Shown here piece by piece: positions 1 through 13,669 of a stretch of 15,147 nucleotides of DNA. Position 1 is the stretch's first letter; each line of letters begins with the position of its first letter. Under the pieces are notes generated by a model. The model worked only from the letters and a program-made list of their open reading frames with translations, was not told the DNA's origin and searched no databases. The position numbers were made by a program, and so were the translations under genes. Origin of the DNA: Candidatus Zixiibacteriota bacterium (GTDB lineage Bacteria > Zixibacteria > MSB-5A5 > GN15 > FEB-12); NCBI GenBank assembly GCA_041742355.1, contig JBGSIV010000172.1, forward strand, positions 1 through 15,147, read 5' to 3'.

Positions 1-360
1 CCCCGAGCGGTCGCAAATAAACTCCGTAGGTGCGCGGCCGATGTCCACATCGGCCGCGTATCAAACGAACCCAATCTCCTGTGCCCTCTCCTGTGGCCCA
101 CCATTCATGGTGGGTTCCTCTCGGCTACCGAGCCAGAGGGGAAATCGAATGCGAAGGAGAACACGCCAAATCGAACCCAAACGTAGGTCGGTGTTCCGAG
201 GGGCGTAAGCCCCGAGAAACCCGACTGAAAATGCTGAAACGAACCCATTCCCGCCCCCCGCAAAGGGGCGGGGCTTGTCTCCACCCCGGAGGTCCCCCGT
301 TCCGCAGGGTCTTGCGCGACCCCGAGCGTAGCGTGGGAGAGCGCAAGACCCTGCGGCAAC
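1..360. repeat. Cluster of heterogeneous REP-like palindromes (several GTAG/GTGG-tagged)
   Basis: GTAG(26-29)+CGCGGCCGATGT-CC-ACATCGGCCGCG (33-58); GTGG+CCCACCAT-TC-ATGGTGGG (93-114); GTAG-GTCGG...GGGGC-GTAA-GCCCC...CCGAC (183-225); CCCGCCCC-N7-GGGGCGGG (250-272); perfect 16-bp stem CCGCAGGGTCTTGCGC/GCGCAAGACCCTGCGG (302-356). Bases 1-14 may be the right half of a further hairpin cut by the window edge. Confidence 0.75.
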
Positions 361-1819: not shown

Positions 1820-2158
1820 CTATAGCTGGATGCGGTCGACCCGCGTGGCGACGATGAAGTCGTTGATCGACAGACCGCCGATCGCATGGGTCCAGAGGGT
1901 AATGCGGACCTTATTCCATCCGTGGATGTAGATGTCCGGATGGTGGCCCTCCTCCTCGGCGATCTCAGCGCACTTGTTGACGAACTTCATCGCCTCGACG
2001 AAATCCTTGAACTGGAAATCGCGTTCGAGTTTCGTGTCGTTCTCGATGATGCGCCACTTGTCGACCTGTTCGAGGTAGACTTCGAAATCAGCACGGGTCA
2101 TCGGGTCGATGCCCCCTTCGCAGGGGACGCAGTGTTTGGACGAGAGATTTTCAGCCAT
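1820..2158 (-). CDS. phhB: Pterin-4-alpha-carbinolamine dehydratase (4a-hydroxytetrahydrobiopterin dehydratase)
   Basis: 112 aa. CVPCEGG N-terminus, FQFKDFVEAMKFVN, signature AEEEGHHPDI, LWTHAIGGLSINDFIVA. Starts 9 nt after the hydroxylase stop. Confidence 0.96.
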   Translation of the reverse strand: MAENLSSKHCVPCEGGIDPMTRADFEVYLEQVDKWRIIENDTKLERDFQFKDFVEAMKFVNKCAEIAEEEGHHPDIYIHGWNKVRITLWTHAIGGLSINDFIVATRVDRIQL

Positions 2159-2167
2159 GGTTCATAC

Positions 2168-3991
2168 TCAATTCTTCTTGTCGGCCGACGGCAGGAGGGC
2201 GAGGCCATCGCGGATCAGCTTGGTCAACGCCGCGTCGGACTGTGCCTTTTTCTCCAGGTAACTGCGGATCTCGGGTTGCAGTTCCGGGCAAACCCCGCGG
2301 GTCAGCGATAGCTCGAGGATCTCCAGCGGCAGAAGCCACTCGTGCGGGTAATCGGCCTTGACATGGGACCAGATGTTGCGCAGGGCGCTGGAATCGGCGC
2401 GCCCCTCGCGGATATCACGGACTTTGCGGTAGAGGTCGAACAGGCGCCGGGTCTGATCGCTGTACGCGGCTTTCACCGTCCGCTCGCGGGGAACGAGCGA
2501 AGGCTGCTGGTAGGCGGATTTGTCGGCCGCGCCGGCAAACACCGAAGTGATCGCTTCGCCGACAGCCATGTCGTACAGCCCCCACTCGGGACGGAACAGG
2601 GTTTCGCCGCCGCGGGCAACGGTGCAGTCGGCGAAGGTCATGAGGACCAGGGCGCCGTTGTGGCGCAGGGTGCGCTCGAGGCGGCCAGTTACGGTCACGC
2701 CGCTGTCGAAAGTCAGGGTGACCGTCTTGCCCCGGTTGATACCGCGGTCCGAAAAGTCGCCGTCGGACATCTTCTCAAGAGGGGTAGTCTCGCCTCTGAG
2801 CTTGCCGACCGGAGATCCGAAACCGTCGGCATGGTAATCGGGACCATGGCCGAGGAGCTGCTTATCGTCGATCGCGAGAGCGCTGCGGCCGGAGGTCTTG
2901 AGATAGTAGGGCTGGCGGGCGTCTGAGAGGGCGTGGCAGGCGGTGAAAACGCCCGACACCTGGAGGCCGGAGCTGTACTGGACAGTCGAGACGTTTTCGC
3001 ACTCGATAGCTTTGGCGAGGCCCTCGACGCCGCCGATCCGGAAAGCCATCTCCTCGGCAAACTGCTCGAGCACGGTGTTCAGATGGGCGAAGTCGGGAGT
3101 GACGAAGAGGTGGGGCTGCTTGGTCGTGATATCGAACGCGTAGTTCTGCGTGTCGAGGTTGTACGGGATCTTTTTGACTGCCGCGGTCAGGCAGGAGGCT
3201 GACTCGCCGATCGAAGAAAGCAGGCCGGCGCCGTAGATTTTCGGATCATCCAGAGTCCCGATGAGCCCGTACTCGACTGTCCACCAATGGAGACGGGAAA
3301 GGCGGGCCATTTCGGACGGTTCGCCGAGGTTGGCCTGCTTGTATTCGACATCTCTTTCGGACTCCGCAACTTCGGCCGGGTCGGCGTCGTCCATCTCCTT
3401 GAGGATGGAGAGGTGGCGGATGGCCTCGTACAGCTCGAAGTCCTTCTTGGAGGACATGGCCTTACTGCCGACATAGCCGATGCGACGGAGGTACTCGGCG
3501 TATTCGGGGTCGGCGATAATTGGGGCGTGGCCGGCCGCCTCGTGGATGATGTCGGGGGCCGGGGTATATTCAATGTGGTTAATCTGACGCATGTCGGCGG
3601 CGATCACGAGCACGCGGTAGGCCTGGAATTCCATGAAAGCGGCCGGGGGAATGAAGCCGTCGACCGGGACGGCGGCCCAGCCGATGGTCCCGAGAATCTC
3701 GTTCATCTCCTCGATGCTGGGGATCTTTTCGATGCTGATGCCGGTGCGGCGGAGGCCGTCGACATACGCGCTGTGGGCATTATTCTTGAGGAAAGCGAAG
3801 TTCTGACGCATGACATAGCGCCAGACCGCGTGGTTGACCGGCGTGTAGGCGGGGTAGTTCTGGTCGACAATGAACTGCTTGAGGTGGTCCGGGAGGCCGG
3901 CAATGATGGGGTTGTCCAGGTACGCGACCGTGGTGTGGCCGGCGCCGGTCGCCGTTGGGGCGGAGAGCCCGGATTTTCCGTCCTGCGACAT
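2168..3991 (-). CDS. phhA: Pterin-dependent aromatic amino acid hydroxylase (phenylalanine 4-monooxygenase), long form with C-terminal extension
   Basis: 607 aa. YTPAPDIIHEAAGHAP (two Fe-ligand His), WWTVEYGLIG, IYGAGLLSSIGE (Fe-ligand Glu), GFIPP. AAAGGA SD. Adjacent to phhB. Confidence 0.94.
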   Translation of the reverse strand: MSQDGKSGLSAPTATGAGHTTVAYLDNPIIAGLPDHLKQFIVDQNYPAYTPVNHAVWRYVMRQNFAFLKNNAHSAYVDGLRRTGISIEKIPSIEEMNEILGTIGWAAVPVDGFIPPAAFMEFQAYRVLVIAADMRQINHIEYTPAPDIIHEAAGHAPIIADPEYAEYLRRIGYVGSKAMSSKKDFELYEAIRHLSILKEMDDADPAEVAESERDVEYKQANLGEPSEMARLSRLHWWTVEYGLIGTLDDPKIYGAGLLSSIGESASCLTAAVKKIPYNLDTQNYAFDITTKQPHLFVTPDFAHLNTVLEQFAEEMAFRIGGVEGLAKAIECENVSTVQYSSGLQVSGVFTACHALSDARQPYYLKTSGRSALAIDDKQLLGHGPDYHADGFGSPVGKLRGETTPLEKMSDGDFSDRGINRGKTVTLTFDSGVTVTGRLERTLRHNGALVLMTFADCTVARGGETLFRPEWGLYDMAVGEAITSVFAGAADKSAYQQPSLVPRERTVKAAYSDQTRRLFDLYRKVRDIREGRADSSALRNIWSHVKADYPHEWLLPLEILELSLTRGVCPELQPEIRSYLEKKAQSDAALTKLIRDGLALLPSADKKN

Positions 3992-4104
3992 GGTCAGAAG
4001 TCCTTTCGTTTCGCGCGCGAATTTGCGTTATGTACTAAATCTACCCAGTAAGTCCATATCTCATATATACAGCGGCGGGCCGCCGGGCGCAAGAGGAACC
4101 GGCG

Positions 4105-6171
4105 TCAGGCCTCCCGAAGTTCGGCCAGATCCCGGAACGGGTCGAGGGCCGACGGGTCCGCCAGGGCGTCGCGGTTGGGCACGTCCTTGCCGTGGATCAC
4201 CCGGGTGACGGCCAGCTCCACCTTCTTGCCGTTGATCGTGTGCGGGATGCGGTCGACCGCAATGATCTTGGCCGGGACATGGCGGGGAGTCTGCCGGCTG
4301 CGGATGGCGGCGCGGATCTTCTCCTTCAGGCTGTCGGTGAGCGTGAGGCCCGGGGCGAGCTGGACGAACAGGATGATCCGGACGTCGTTTCGCCACTGCT
4401 GGCCGACGACGATGGAATCGACAATCTCGGGGAGAGCCTCGACCGGGGTGTAGATTTCAGCCGTACCGATCCTGACGCCGCCGGGGTTAAGGGTGGCATC
4501 GGAGCGGCCGTAGACAATGATCCCGCCAGTTTCGGTAATCTCAATGTAATCGCCGTGCCGCCAGACCCCGGGATAGTGGTCGAAATAGGCGTCGTGGTAT
4601 TTGCGGCCGTCGGGATCGTTCCAGAAGAAAACCGGGCGGGAGGGGAAGCGTTCGGTGCAGACCAGTTCGCCGACCTGACCGGTCACGGAGCGGCCGGAGT
4701 CATCAAAAGTGGCGACTTTCATCCCCAGGCCGCGGCACTGGATCTCGCCGGGGTAAACGGGGAGAATGGGGCAGCCGAGCATGAAGCAGGAGATGATGTC
4801 GGTGCCGCCGGAGATGGAGGCGAGTTGGAGGTCGGCTCCGATGTTCTGGTAGACCCAGGCGAAATTCTTCTCGGAGAGCGGGGAGCCGGTCGAAAGAATG
4901 GTGCGCAGGGACGACAGGTCGAATTTGGTCCTCGGGGTCAGGCCGGGTGTCTCACAAGCGCTGAGGAACTTGGGACTGGTGCCGAAGACAGTGATTTTGT
5001 GCCGCTCGACAGCTCTCCACAGACGGTCGAGCGTGGGGTGCGACGGCGAGCCGTCGTAAATGTACATGGTGGCGCCGATTTGCAGGGCGCTGACGAGCCA
5101 GTTCCACATCATCCAGCCGCAGGTCGTGTAGTAGGTGATGACGTCGTCGCGACGAAGGTCGGTGTGGAGGGCGTGCTCCTTGTAGTGCTGGAGGAGTGTG
5201 CCGCCCGCGCCGTGGACCATGCATTTCGGGACGCCGGTGGTGCCGGAGGAGTACATGATGTAGACGGGGTGGTCAAAGGGAAGCTGGGCGAATTCGATTT
5301 CGGTGGCGGTATTGTTCAGCAGAGAGGCCCAGGGCAGGGTGGATGCATCGCCCGTCATCCTGAGCGTAGTCGAAGGCTGACGGTCGGGGAACTCGGCTTG
5401 AAGGGAGTCAGGCTCCAGGGAGCCTAACTGGCCTGTTTTGTTGTCGGCTCTCCCGGAGGTTCGCTCCTCGGAATCCGACCTACTGACTACAACAATGTGT
5501 TCGATCGCGGGGATACTCCTGGCGATGTGGGCGACTTTATCGAGGCAGTCGATACGATGGCCGTTGTAATGGTAGCTGTCAGCGGTGAAAAGGACCTTGG
5601 GTTCTATTTGGCCGAAGCGGTCCAGGACACCCTGCAGGCCGAAGTCGGGGGAGCACGACGACCAGATCGCGCCGAGGCTGGTGGTGGCAAGCATGGCGAT
5701 CACGGCCTCGGGGATGTTCGGGATGAAGGCGGCAACGCGGTCCCCCTCGCGGACGCCGAGGGCGCGCAGCCCATGGGCGCAGCGGGCCACCTGGTCGTGG
5801 AGTTCGGCGTAGGTCGGGGAGGCGATGACGCCGGTTTCGGCTTCGGCGATGATGGCGGTGTGGTTGTCGCGGAATCGCAGGAGGTTCTCGGCGAAATTCA
5901 AGCGGGCGCCGGGAAACCAGGTGGTTCTGTGGATCTCAGCGCCTTCCACAACGCAGTCATATGGCTGCGAGTGGATAATCCCCGAGGCATCCCAGACGGC
6001 GCGCCAAAAGTCCTCGATATGATCGACCGAGTACTGCCAGAGATCATCGTAGGAGCCGAAGCGCTGCCCGGCGCTTTCGCCGAAGCGGCCCATGAAGCGC
6101 GTGAGGTTGCTCTGGGCAACGCGCTCAGGGGAGGGTGTCCAGAGGGGTGACTTGATGGAGATATCCGTCAT
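4105..6171 (-). CDS. Acetoacetate--CoA ligase (acetoacetyl-CoA synthetase) carrying an in-frame insertion
   Basis: PLWTPSPER N-terminus, WFPGARLNFAENLL, WSSCSPDFG, DRFGQIEPK, AMP-binding YIMYSSGTTGVPKCMVHG, YYTTCGWMMWNWL, SISGGTDIISCF, WRHGD, GRSDATLNPGGVRIGTAEIY, NGKKVELAV. ATG 6171 preferred over TTG 6192; start uncertain. Confidence 0.95.
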   Translation of the reverse strand: MTDISIKSPLWTPSPERVAQSNLTRFMGRFGESAGQRFGSYDDLWQYSVDHIEDFWRAVWDASGIIHSQPYDCVVEGAEIHRTTWFPGARLNFAENLLRFRDNHTAIIAEAETGVIASPTYAELHDQVARCAHGLRALGVREGDRVAAFIPNIPEAVIAMLATTSLGAIWSSCSPDFGLQGVLDRFGQIEPKVLFTADSYHYNGHRIDCLDKVAHIARSIPAIEHIVVVSRSDSEERTSGRADNKTGQLGSLEPDSLQAEFPDRQPSTTLRMTGDASTLPWASLLNNTATEIEFAQLPFDHPVYIMYSSGTTGVPKCMVHGAGGTLLQHYKEHALHTDLRRDDVITYYTTCGWMMWNWLVSALQIGATMYIYDGSPSHPTLDRLWRAVERHKITVFGTSPKFLSACETPGLTPRTKFDLSSLRTILSTGSPLSEKNFAWVYQNIGADLQLASISGGTDIISCFMLGCPILPVYPGEIQCRGLGMKVATFDDSGRSVTGQVGELVCTERFPSRPVFFWNDPDGRKYHDAYFDHYPGVWRHGDYIEITETGGIIVYGRSDATLNPGGVRIGTAEIYTPVEALPEIVDSIVVGQQWRNDVRIILFVQLAPGLTLTDSLKEKIRAAIRSRQTPRHVPAKIIAVDRIPHTINGKKVELAVTRVIHGKDVPNRDALADPSALDPFRDLAELREA
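5352..5483. repeat. Intragenic block of three REP-like palindromes
   Basis: (+) CCGTCATCCTGAGCGTAGTCGAAGGCTGACGG 5352-5383; GTCAGGCTCC-AG-GGAGCCTAAC 5407-5428; (-) GTAGGTCGGATTCCGAGGAGCGAACCTCCGGGAGAGCCGAC 5483-5443, similar to 183-225. Confidence 0.8.
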
Positions 6172-6349
6172 TAGGAATAACAACAGCGTCAAGAGGGGTT
6201 TGGTTTCGTGGAAGGGAACGGAATCCAGAGGTTGGTACGCCTTTGGCCGGGACTCCCTCCTAATATCGATACCCTGGGAGAAGAGGCGCCTGCGGGGTTT
6301 GGCCGCTTGCAGGAAGGAGCGGGGCGACCGAGAGGCTCATGGAATCGGA

Positions 6350-6567: not shown

Positions 6568-9009
6568 ATGCGAACCGCCGCCACGTATTGTATTCTCATC
6601 GTACTGGCAGTCAGCGGGATTGGGACACGGGTCAAGGGGCAAAGCTGCCAATCAATCCCATGGAGCAATGATCAGATCGGAATCCAGAGCCTGAGCGGAT
6701 TGCCGGGAGACACTGTCTGGGCCCCGGTGTGGGTGATTACGGATTCCACGTTGCTGGCGTTTATCCTGACAATCCGGTTTGACACCACGATCCTCGCACC
6801 GATCGCGCTGAACGACGGGAGCGGGCGCCTGGTGGTCGAGGCCGCCGGGCGGTTCGCGGGTTCGGAGTTCCTGTGGGCGCAACGGTCGGCGGAGCCTGAG
6901 GACTCGGGGGCGCTGCGGGTGGCGTTCCTGCCGCAGGGGCCGGCCGACGACACGATCCCCGCCGGGAGCGGGGTGATTCTCCGGATACCTCTCGTGGTGC
7001 AGCCGGCCGCCTGGTCCCTCAGCTACCCCACACTGCTCACGTTTCCCCGGCGCACGTTCTATGTCGTGGACTCAACGAGCAATCGGCCCGACTCGACAGC
7101 GCATTGCCAAGGGACGCAGTTCATGGAGCGTTCCGACGGTGTGACGGGAACAAACGAGGGATTTCCGCGCCCGGATGTGTCGAGGTTCCATCCCGACGAA
7201 TGCCGTGGATCGGAACCGCTGATCACCGATCTGCAATTTTATCCGAGGTCGGTCCGACAGGGGGATTCGATCTCGGTCTTCTGGAATACGTGCAGTACGG
7301 ACAGCATCGTAATCACCCCCGGAATCGGCATGCATCCGAGCACGAGTCACGCCGGCAAATTCGCCATGGTGTACGATACTCCGACAGTCTTTACCTTCGC
7401 CGCCTTTGGCGGCGGCACGAGCGTTTCCCGGGAAGTGCGATTGCTGGCGGTTCCGCCTGGAGCAAATCGCTACCCGTACTGGCAGGATGGTCCCATTGTG
7501 TCGGCAAGGGTGTGGGAAGGAAACCCGCTGCAGGGTACCCTGCCCTTTGTAGATCCCGAGGGAACCACGCCAACGGTGTCGGTAACGCCGACGTCTGCAT
7601 CGGCGACGGTGGGTACGCCGCCGTCCAGTTCGGTGTACTTCTCTTGGCAGCCGGAAGTCGGGGATACGGGAGTCCACGACTTTGTCTTGGTGTTGACCGA
7701 TGGCGAGGATTCGACGCTGACCGACACGTTGCTGCTGCGGGTGGATGTGCTCGATGCCAATCAGCTTCCGACGTGGACACTGGACACGACGACAGCGACA
7801 ATCGCGGAGGCGGATACGCTGACCGTCCCGATTTCCACCGCGGATCAGGACGGCACGGTGACCACGGTCGAAGCGCACTTGTACGGGCGGGATACGCTGG
7901 CCACCAACATGCGGTATATCGACCACGGTGACGGAACCGGCGCCCTGCTCTTCGCCCCGGATTACACGCAGGGAAATACCCACCCGACATGGTACGTGGT
8001 TAGCTTTACCATCCGTGACGGGGCGGATCCCGCGGTGGTCCGAGAATCAAATCGGAAGACAATCAAAGTGCTGAACCACAACAGCGGAACCGAGGTGCCG
8101 GCGATAGCCCTGTCGAACGGGCCGGGGCCATTTGCCCTGTATGAACTGGACACCGTCGTATTCGAAGTGCGGGCAACGACCCAGATAGGGGACCGTCCGG
8201 AGTTGAGCACGACGCCGCTGCCGCCGGGAGCCACCTTTGAGCCAGTTCCCGGGACGACCCTCAGCGATCGGATGACGTTCCGGTATCGCCCGCCGGAAGG
8301 TTCGGTCGGCGATTATTCGGTCACGTTCACGGCCACGAACGGAGATCTGCACCGGCAGGTCACAGTTGACTTCTCGGTTGCGAAGCTCAACCGGTCGCCG
8401 TGGGTGGTGGTGTTGCCGGGTGACAATACGATCAACGAAGAAGACACCGCCATCGTGAAGATCTATGCGATTGATCCGGACTCAACGGTGCCGATCCTCT
8501 CGGCGGCGCTCGACGGCACGGATTCGCTGGCGAGAAACATGAGGTTCGTAGATTCGGGCAACGGGATAGGCGTGCTTACGTTTGTGCCGAACCGGCTCCA
8601 GTCGGGCGACTGTGGTGATCCGGGGTTTTACTACCTGCGATTCCGGGCCGCCGACAGATTCCCGCCATATCCGGTGGCAGTGAGTATTGTGCGCACCATC
8701 ATCGTCTACGATTCGGGCCTGCCGTGCTGCGTGGACAGGACCGGGGATGTGAACTACGATGGAAACGGCTACGGTACGCCGAACATCTCCGACTTGGTCG
8801 ATCTGGTGCGGTACTTCACTTCGGAATCAAGGACCTTGCCATGCTACGCCGAAGCGGATCTCGACGGATCAGGAACGTTCACGATAGCCGATGTTGTGGT
8901 GATGGTGGGGCATTTATACCGGGGGACGGGGCCGTTGCTGTCGTGCCCGGTGCAGCCGGAAGAGGTACGACTTCCCCCCGAGAAGACGTCAGCCCCGCTT
9001 TCGCCGTGA
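6568..9009 (+). CDS. Secreted multidomain surface protein: cohesin-like domain, Ig/cadherin-like repeats, C-terminal dockerin-type domain
   Basis: 813 aa, GGAGGG SD, signal peptide. Cohesin-like pattern (PGDTVWAPVWV...FILTIRFDTTIL...GALRVAF...IPAGSGVILRIPLVV). Repeats with NxxP/E.DT/DPD motifs (LATNMRYIDHGDGTGALLFAP vs LARNMRFVDSGNGIGVLTFVP). Duplicated Ca-loop GDVNYDG...NISDLVDLVRYF / ADLDGSGTFTIADVVVMVGHLY. Confidence 0.8.
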   Translation: MRTAATYCILIVLAVSGIGTRVKGQSCQSIPWSNDQIGIQSLSGLPGDTVWAPVWVITDSTLLAFILTIRFDTTILAPIALNDGSGRLVVEAAGRFAGSEFLWAQRSAEPEDSGALRVAFLPQGPADDTIPAGSGVILRIPLVVQPAAWSLSYPTLLTFPRRTFYVVDSTSNRPDSTAHCQGTQFMERSDGVTGTNEGFPRPDVSRFHPDECRGSEPLITDLQFYPRSVRQGDSISVFWNTCSTDSIVITPGIGMHPSTSHAGKFAMVYDTPTVFTFAAFGGGTSVSREVRLLAVPPGANRYPYWQDGPIVSARVWEGNPLQGTLPFVDPEGTTPTVSVTPTSASATVGTPPSSSVYFSWQPEVGDTGVHDFVLVLTDGEDSTLTDTLLLRVDVLDANQLPTWTLDTTTATIAEADTLTVPISTADQDGTVTTVEAHLYGRDTLATNMRYIDHGDGTGALLFAPDYTQGNTHPTWYVVSFTIRDGADPAVVRESNRKTIKVLNHNSGTEVPAIALSNGPGPFALYELDTVVFEVRATTQIGDRPELSTTPLPPGATFEPVPGTTLSDRMTFRYRPPEGSVGDYSVTFTATNGDLHRQVTVDFSVAKLNRSPWVVVLPGDNTINEEDTAIVKIYAIDPDSTVPILSAALDGTDSLARNMRFVDSGNGIGVLTFVPNRLQSGDCGDPGFYYLRFRAADRFPPYPVAVSIVRTIIVYDSGLPCCVDRTGDVNYDGNGYGTPNISDLVDLVRYFTSESRTLPCYAEADLDGSGTFTIADVVVMVGHLYRGTGPLLSCPVQPEEVRLPPEKTSAPLSP

Positions 9010-11709: not shown

Positions 11710-11731
11710 ATGGTGATTTTTTTCACTTTTC
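11710..11731. promoter_or_regulatory. Distal CRP/Rex-type operator candidate
   Basis: GGTGA-TTTTTT-TCACT. Matches the reverse complement of 12024-12045 at 19 of 22 positions. Confidence 0.5.
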
Positions 11732-12023: not shown

Positions 12024-12045
12024 AAAATGTGAAAAAAATCACAAT
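12024..12045. promoter_or_regulatory. Proximal CRP/Rex-type operator
   Basis: AAAA-TGTGA-AAAAAA-TCACA-AT: perfect TGTGA-N6-TCACA with an all-A spacer, between the predicted promoter and the start codon. Confidence 0.7.
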
Positions 12046-13210: not shown

Positions 13211-13669
13211 ATGGAAAACCTGGAACGCATTATCACCGACCATCCCTTTGTGAAGGGCCTGCCGCCGGAACATATCCGGCTGATAGTCGGGTGCGCGGCA
13301 AATGTCGTGTGCAAGGAAGGGGAGTTCCTGTTTCGCGAAGGGGAGCCGGCCGACAAGTTCTACCTGATCCGCCAGGGCCGCCTCATGATCGAGTCGCACA
13401 TCCCGCACCGCGGGGCGATCAGCATTCAGACGCTCGGCGAGGGTGATCTGGTGGGCTGGTCGTGGCTCCTGCCGCCGTACCGGTTCCACTTCGATGCGCG
13501 GATTTGCGAGACGACTCGGCTGATCGGGTTCGATGGCAAGTGCCTGCGCGAGAAATTCGACAAGGACCCCGTGCTGGGATATGAAATTATGAAGAAGTTC
13601 GCGTCGGTTATGGCCGATTGCCTCGATGCGACGCGGCTTCAAATGCTGGAAGTATATGGCGACCACTAA
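13211..13669 (+). CDS. Stand-alone cyclic nucleotide-binding (Crp effector-like) domain protein, no HTH
   Basis: 152 aa, [46 protein letters not shown]. Ends after the C-helix. Confidence 0.9.

Follow-up and report, generated by a model that had tools for sequence, protein, structure and literature searches.

Three palindromic repeat units stacked in frame within an acetoacetate--CoA ligase gene of a Zixibacteria genome

Results

Genomic setting and identity of the ligase

The window (the whole stretch of DNA analysed, 15,147 nucleotides) comes from a Candidatus Zixiibacteriota assembly that is fragmented into 310 contigs and 93.8% complete. On its minus strand lies an acetoacetate--CoA ligase gene (4105..6192), whose open frame encodes 695 aa from a TTG start and contains no stops; the database version of the same gene starts at the ATG at 6171 and encodes 688 aa. 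The ligase precedes an aromatic amino-acid hydroxylase of 607 aa and a 112-aa protein on the same strand (window 1820-6192). The 112-aa protein presumably resembles a pterin dehydratase, and the three genes may form a cluster for the breakdown of Phe/Tyr.

In profile searches, the ligase ORF scored 954.6 bits against NF002937 (cut-off 639) and 904 against TIGR01217 (cut-off 520.9), and each profile matched the protein as two stretches, with the break at the expanded loop described below. The structural model, obtained by alignment-based prediction, has a mean pLDDT of 86.8. Its closest solved structure, as the top Foldseek match, is 4WD1 (TM 0.84), and the alignment with this structure covers what we take to be the ATP-binding motif and the C-terminal lysine motif. 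The identity of the protein as an acetoacetate--CoA ligase is thus given by scores above the curated cut-offs and by the fold shared with the solved enzyme. According to the model, the predicted ligase fold is intact despite the insert.

A loop expanded by 35 residues

The expanded loop (5332..5484, minus strand) comprises codons 237-287 and spans 51 aa, compared with 16 aa in orthologues of the genus, a net gain of 105 nt. An earlier note on this DNA had picked out the 51-residue segment between HIVVV and PWASLL, and we find it at residues 237-287 of the 695-aa ORF; the count includes the P of PWASLL, and 50 residues lie strictly between the anchors. The reading frame is open across the segment without stops, as had been claimed. 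All three same-genus orthologues have loops of 16 aa, so that the ligase carries 35 additional residues, at the top of the 30-35 that had been estimated.

Comparison with wider sets of homologues gave the same picture. The loop measures 6-20 aa in 23/23 relatives, with exactly 16 in 15 of them, and 118 of 119 database homologues fall within 14-25 aa. The anchored span is 106 in the ligase vs 69-71 in 29/29 parsed family loci. The gap anticipated by the earlier note is therefore present in the orthologue alignment, and a loop of equal length was not seen there. No intermediate insertion state was found among the 119 proteins, the 29 parsed family loci or 75 metagenome loci (75/80 parsed). Over the loop region, no relative exceeded 67% in the protein search or 59% in metagenome contigs. 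The congener G002 shares its exact loop sequence with a protein labelled candidate division Zixibacteria, which makes a host of that phylum probable. The remaining database homologue, a distant one (P0065), has a loop of 48 residues at the matching site, unrelated in sequence.

The insert is modelled as a low-confidence coil linking two strands, with pLDDT < 50 at model residues 240-268 (ORF 247-275); such low values are expected in any insert that lacks alignment depth and are no proof of disorder. At the insert site, 4WD1 has a 9-residue linker. The segment therefore shows the features of a coding insertion: it lies in frame within a conserved ORF, is absent from orthologues and falls in a loop that the fold can accommodate, as judged from the coil between strands in the model and the linker in 4WD1.

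Codon usage also sets the segment apart. Seven atypical codons (AGT, AGG, CGA, AGA, TTA, CAA and ACA), to which the earlier note had drawn attention, account for 8/51 loop codons vs 16/644 elsewhere in the gene, and the codon score of the loop is lower than that of every one of 551 other 45-codon windows in the ligase gene.

The insert was also recovered from sequencing runs. In run X1, one contig covers 5097-5900, insert included, with zero differences, and in run X2 two pieces (5164-5420 and 5416-5632) likewise show zero differences. Two runs in which the window has a small share, X3 and X4, leave the insert uncovered, and the run search found no RNA data sets carrying the window sequence. 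The identity of X1 and X2 argues against an assembly slip; it does not amount to independent occurrence, since both runs belong to one study and X1 is possibly the source sample.

The insert consists of three repeat units

The minimum-energy structure of the insert DNA holds the three consecutive hairpins that had been described (z = -2.28; 3/200 shuffles were as good). In the direction of the gene, we refer to them as h3, h2 and h1.

The first unit, h3 (5443..5483, minus strand), is a GTAG-tagged REP with an intact tag, an outer stem and a variable inner hairpin, and differs from its closest copies at 5/39 bases. Its family comprises 115 copies on 51 contigs, with one copy within a called gene. 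The unit has the hallmarks of GTAG REPs, namely an unpaired 5' GTAG followed by a stem of 5-13 bp, in many mostly extragenic copies. The inner stem is paired in 41/43 copies that fit the exact pattern, with six different stem ends. A second GTAG (5487..5490, minus strand) lies within Val-Val codons just ahead of h3.

The second unit, h2 (5407..5428, minus strand), is the body of another GTAG-family REP and matches the family consensus at 20/22 bases. It is separated from h3 by a spacer (5429..5442, minus strand) that spans the place of its lost GTAG tag. The family has 66 copies on 40 contigs, a few of which represent a sister variant; its consensus is a GTAG tag followed by a stem, in many copies, as expected of a GTAG REP. 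Lacking the GTAG, the copy in the insert is a degenerate member.

The third unit, h1 (5353..5382, plus strand), follows after a second spacer (5383..5406, minus strand) and is a CGTC-type REP, inverted relative to the ligase gene. It differs from its closest copies at 2/30 bases, and its family comprises 101 copies on 51 contigs. A terminal CGTC/TGTC, a stem of 8-9 bp and the multiple copies agree with CGTC repeats; the loop, at 12 nt rather than 4-5, and the pairing of CGTC with the terminal GACG depart from CGTC families 1-4. The unit is therefore CGTC-like and is not placed in these families.

Copy numbers were obtained with HMMs trained without the insert's own copies. Raw hits to h1, h2 and h3 numbered 104, 112 and 116, with none in the reversed genome; as raw hits count palindromes twice, the corrected numbers are the 101, 66 and 115 given above. 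Every hairpin thus has further copies in the genome, which agrees with the reading in the earlier note, and all three originate from genome-wide repeat families. Its description of the tags proved right in part: both lie at the quoted positions (GTAG, 5483, minus strand; CGTC, 5353, plus strand), but the CGTC is not free. The mixed make-up likewise holds in that the families differ, and is amended to two GTAG families, the middle unit being tagless, and one CGTC-type family. BLASTN with word size 7 gave only chance-level matches to either spacer elsewhere in the genome. With no second copy of the spacers, a donor cluster was not found.

From its sequence, the segment is new predicted protein sequence made from repeat DNA, 35 aa in net length. 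The central proposal of the earlier note, that palindromes of different families gathered in a tolerant loop and created new protein sequence, is supported by the orthologue loops, the copy counts and the structural model.

Repeat units form mixed clusters across the genome

We surveyed the genome de novo with 28 repeat models, some of them overlapping or composite, from which coding repeats and likely IS ends were excluded. The survey returned 1253 units in 466 clusters, about 1% of the genome. Families are mixed in 259/283 multi-unit clusters, 157 clusters contain at least three families, and GTAG-type and CGTC-type units occur together in 121 (by our own type assignment). One such mixed cluster lies in the window itself: the intergenic stretch 1-355 holds six units, one of which is an intact h3-family copy (182..225, plus strand; E 3.4e-12).

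The order of units in the insert recurs in part. The arrangement of h3 followed head-to-tail by h2 has 15 further occurrences vs 1.8 expected (0/2000 shuffles), several of which are related copies, whereas h2 followed by inverted h1 occurs three times elsewhere vs 1.7 expected (462/2000 shuffles) and is not enriched. The full h3-h2-h1 trio is found once elsewhere (C179:3728-3930; 81/2000 shuffles), with longer, unrelated spacers. The recurrence of h3-h2 indicates that the insert obeys the cluster grammar of the genome, and the repeat load of the genome accounts for the mixed make-up of the insert.

Only 16 of the 1253 units lie wholly within called genes, while genes cover 77% of the genome, which points to strong filtering; the gene calls are our own and may miss inserts that lie close to the end of a gene or within a broken one, as happened with the dnaE2 stack described below. 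Across clusters of 2-4 units, 481/1284 frames are free of stops.

Two other repeats were seen in the same survey. The spacers of REP clusters often contain an A-rich motif that is not palindromic (F3, 55 copies). A 29-nt repeat (repeat family 21) has nine copies on one contig of the source genome, G000, and in our estimation resembles a CRISPR repeat.

In-frame units in other genes

Six genes carry in-frame units, the ligase included; four of the six hold mixed stacks, and all are longer than their relatives (3-5 per gene, 23 for the ligase). An MnmA-family tRNA enzyme (G000:C301:1205-1333; L036) has gained 43 aa from TGTC-type, GTAG-family and h1 units, and a protein with a weak M50 peptidase match (G000:C265:3160-3301) has gained 47 to 49 aa from two h1 units and a GTAG unit. 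In a Dus-family enzyme (G000:C67:4739-4943), h1 and four units of another family correspond to 84 additional residues, or 76 vs G002. The Dus loop of G002 has 8 additional residues, like half an h1 unit. The other two genes encode an EamA transporter (G000:C182:555-579; +7 to 8 aa) and a methyltransferase (G000:C214:45395-45423; +29 aa). Weaker candidates for in-frame units lie at G000:C185:825-2012 and C197:5562-6590.

Five genomes, G000, G002, G097, G098 and G012 (L036, L204, L205, L206 and L208), have an expansion in one and the same loop of MnmA, in a survey of the best 30 family loci, 29 of them parsed, whose ranking favours long loops. Repeat units are recognised in this loop in G097 and G098 and are weak or eroded in G002. 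G000 and G002 are sisters in the species tree (support 99); the MnmA of G000 is 77.5% identical to that of G002, below the values for G003 (84.7%) and G001 (83.3%). A shared and an independent origin of the two inserts are both compatible with these data.

A further stack lies at G000:C8:318-1922 (L173, L241), where 16 units of 11 repeat models form about 290 stop-free codons leading into the C-terminal third of what we take to be a DnaE2-family gene. Its frame is that of the last 237 model positions, and the other five frames contain 5-18 stops; at the stop rate of the clusters, a given frame would be stop-free with a probability of 4e-4. The first 810 DnaE2 model positions were not found in the G000 assembly, and three congeners have whole dnaE2 genes. 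The truncated remnant is possibly the product of a deletion through the repeats or of a misassembly.

Distribution and decay of the units

The source genome has 45 matches to the strict h2 pattern and 45 to the strict h3 pattern, and the three congeners have none; among 108 family genomes, the two patterns are present in 3 and 17, respectively. This absence from the congeners fits an insertion private to the source lineage. The strict h1 pattern is more widespread, with 76 occurrences in the source genome, 1, 15 and 4 in the three congeners, and presence in 48 of the 108 family genomes.

The units in the insert rank low within their families. Counted from the bottom by HMM score, h1 stands at 21/101, h2 at 3/66 and h3 at 7/115. 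Compared with their closest copies, the three carry eight non-synonymous changes and one synonymous change, one of the h1 changes being perhaps a natural variant, and they bear private changes absent from every other copy. Pairing is below the family median in all three, although all three still fold. The units are decaying, and the pattern fits drift, on few sites; nine substitutions do not suffice to establish neutrality.

One property stands apart. In its likeness to the native loop, the peptide encoded by h2 surpasses 99.4% of repeat-encoded peptides, its score being reached by 41/6836 unit-frames. This likeness is not predicted by pure neutrality; at about a 2% chance after allowing for three units, it is suggestive.

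Transposases and a model for the insertion

The genome contains five Y1_Tnp genes, one of them with an internal stop, and each is flanked by its own hairpin family (L031-L035); a Y1_Tnp fragment adjoins a sixth hairpin family (G000:C262:4101-4524). In the 93.8%-complete assembly, no Y1_Tnp gene is flanked by h1, h2 or h3, so that h2 and h3 lack the neighbouring cognate Y1/HUH transposase gene that is characteristic of REP-RAYT systems. Across 24 loci, no Y1_Tnp gene was found near such repeats. Given this, we infer rather than observe delivery by such enzymes.

Published work provides a basis for such delivery. In the portions of PMC8266576 available, TnpA-REP is reported to bind single-stranded GTAG hairpins and to cut nearby, and GTAG to direct the choice of cleavage site in vitro; the pathway by which REPs spread is described there as unresolved. 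The available text of PMC3733652 ties transposase genes to GTAG repeats and not to CGTC repeats, for which no transposase is known in the literature examined. The transposase association put forward in the earlier note thus stands for GTAG repeats in general, but not for CGTC repeats, and no transposase gene flanks h1, h2 or h3.

We consider it probable that the insert is a small REP mosaic, in which the ordinary process of REP-cluster building hit a tolerant loop and survived through an open frame. The lineage would have experienced a burst of short palindromic repeats that gathered as mixed clusters. Cluster building would then have hit the variable segment that links two beta-strands in the ligase N-terminal domain, leaving behind the GTAG unit h3, the second GTAG unit h2 head-to-tail with it, and the inverted CGTC-type h1, with the units taking the place of the 16 native codons or interspersed among them. 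HUH/Y1 transposases (RAYTs) may have acted in trans on single-stranded hairpins, or the units may have come by recombination with existing clusters. Length and sequence would preserve the frame, the loop would tolerate the bulk, and the peptide would be a near-neutral passenger. The proportion of stop-free frames across clusters (481/1284) suggests that in-frame landing is tolerated in a loop whose native length is itself variable, at 14 to 25 residues. Arrival as a block and arrival step by step appear about equally plausible.

A bolder and distinctly more tentative proposal is that the first in-frame hairpin serves as a landing pad for other families, including CGTC-type units that have no transposase of their own. 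Loops would then grow by ordered, frame-preserving steps, as might be the case for the 35 aa of the ligase, the MnmA loop of five genomes from three genera and the roughly 290 codons before DnaE2. In the ligase, one unit would have replaced the native loop and been kept for its peptide.

Alternative explanations

A related explanation, which we regard as unlikely, is replacement with selection. In this reading, the REP in the middle would have displaced the native loop and been retained as a peptide mimic, and h3 and h1 would have followed as separate flanking in-frame insertions of 17 and 18 codons. The 11 middle residues align in register with the start of the native loop, and its end is matched by the final 5 residues, 16 in all; the h2-peptide score reported above is rarely reached; and a Ser-to-Leu change yields a hydrophobic residue at a position where such a residue is found in many orthologues. 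However, a register match is expected by chance at about 2% with three units, and any split totals 35. The native loop is also variable across the family, and the surveyed proteins, family loci and metagenome loci contain no intermediate.

Loss of function before the arrival of the repeats, with the ligase a dying gene copy, is improbable. Codon usage is somewhat less biased immediately upstream of the insert, and the same assembly holds the dnaE2 remnant behind a REP stack. Against this, the gene has no stops, and its identity to congeners is 74-77% downstream of the insert, compared with 62-65% upstream. The alignment with 4WD1 includes both the ATP-binding and the C-terminal lysine motif, the gene is the sole close ligase copy in the assembly, and mnmA bears a similar stack.

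Retention of the hairpins for an RNA or DNA role, such as mRNA stability, translational pausing or gyrase sites, appears slightly less credible still. Such roles have been proposed for REPs in the available part of PMC3733652, and the three hairpins still fold; yet pairing is sub-median in all units and the h2 tag is lost, while intergenic h3 copies keep compensatory inner stems. Finally, fusion of repeat reads into the ligase gene during assembly is very hard to credit even in a 310-contig assembly rich in these repeats, since the X1 contig and the two X2 pieces agree without difference (within one study, X1 being possibly the source) and the private changes of the units match no other copy.

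Relation to known repeat systems

The insert most closely resembles the intragenic GTAG/CGTC REPs of Di Nocera, De Gregorio and Rocco (2013, PMC3733652), which in the available text are likewise short tagged palindromes placed in frame within known proteins. Grouped inserts there add 43-82 aa, and their targets include dnaE2 and tRNA-modifying genes. Supplement 3 lists for Oter_1797 a GTAG-19 unit at 606-612 and a GTAG-18 dimer at 628-651, and for RC1226 a CGTC-1 unit at 541-549 and a CGTC-4 unit at 557-566. In-frame REP insertion, including neighbours from two families, is therefore already published. The earlier expectation that a mixed coding stack would be unusual is not borne out, given these neighbours, the 259/283 mixed clusters and the four mixed genes out of six.

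The ligase insert also departs from these precedents. No row in supplement 3 pairs GTAG with CGTC in one insert, unlike the ligase. The CGTC repeats described in the available text have loops of 4-5 nt and unpaired tags, in contrast to the 12-nt loop and paired tag of h1, and CGTC clusters are called rare there but are common in the source genome. The phyla named in that text do not include Zixibacteria. In the literature searched, which leaves most subscription journals outside, we found neither a coding stack that combines GTAG and CGTC units nor any account of REPs from Zixibacteria.

Rickettsia palindromic elements likewise consist of palindromic DNA that has joined unrelated genes in frame, and are proposed to be fold-compatible in the available parts of PMC3733652 and PMC10969869. 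RPE-1-type elements are single units of ~150 bp that share a conserved peptide, and just under half of them are intragenic (PMC10969869, available part). The ligase insert differs from them in its units of 22-41 bp from several families, with 16/1253 units intragenic. REP/BIME mosaics and the REPtrons with TnpA-REP/RAYT, as covered in the available portion of PMC8266576, share GTAG hairpins and Y1_Tnp genes flanked by their own family; unlike REPtrons, the three families of the insert are not flanked by a transposase gene in the assembly.

What the source genome adds is the stacking of GTAG and CGTC-type units in frame in several genes, a recurring unit order and an MnmA loop that is repeatedly hit. 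It offers a clean case of protein sequence from non-coding mobile DNA, with an empty site in close relatives and donor families that can be counted in the same genome. The case is relevant to the spread of REPs and to the question of what mobilises CGTC repeats.

Other features of the window

Two further features were noted in the window. An 813-aa protein (6568-9009) looks secreted, has only a weak tandem-95 match and, by eye, a dockerin-like end; a coding repeat of dockerin-like kind has 160 matches in the genome. A 21-nt inverted pair (11710-11730 and 12025-12045) heads a sulfhydrogenase-like operon that, by eye, apparently includes a cyclic-nucleotide-binding protein (13211-13669). The right arm of the pair reads TGTGA-N6-TCACA, which we take to be a CRP/FNR-type box.
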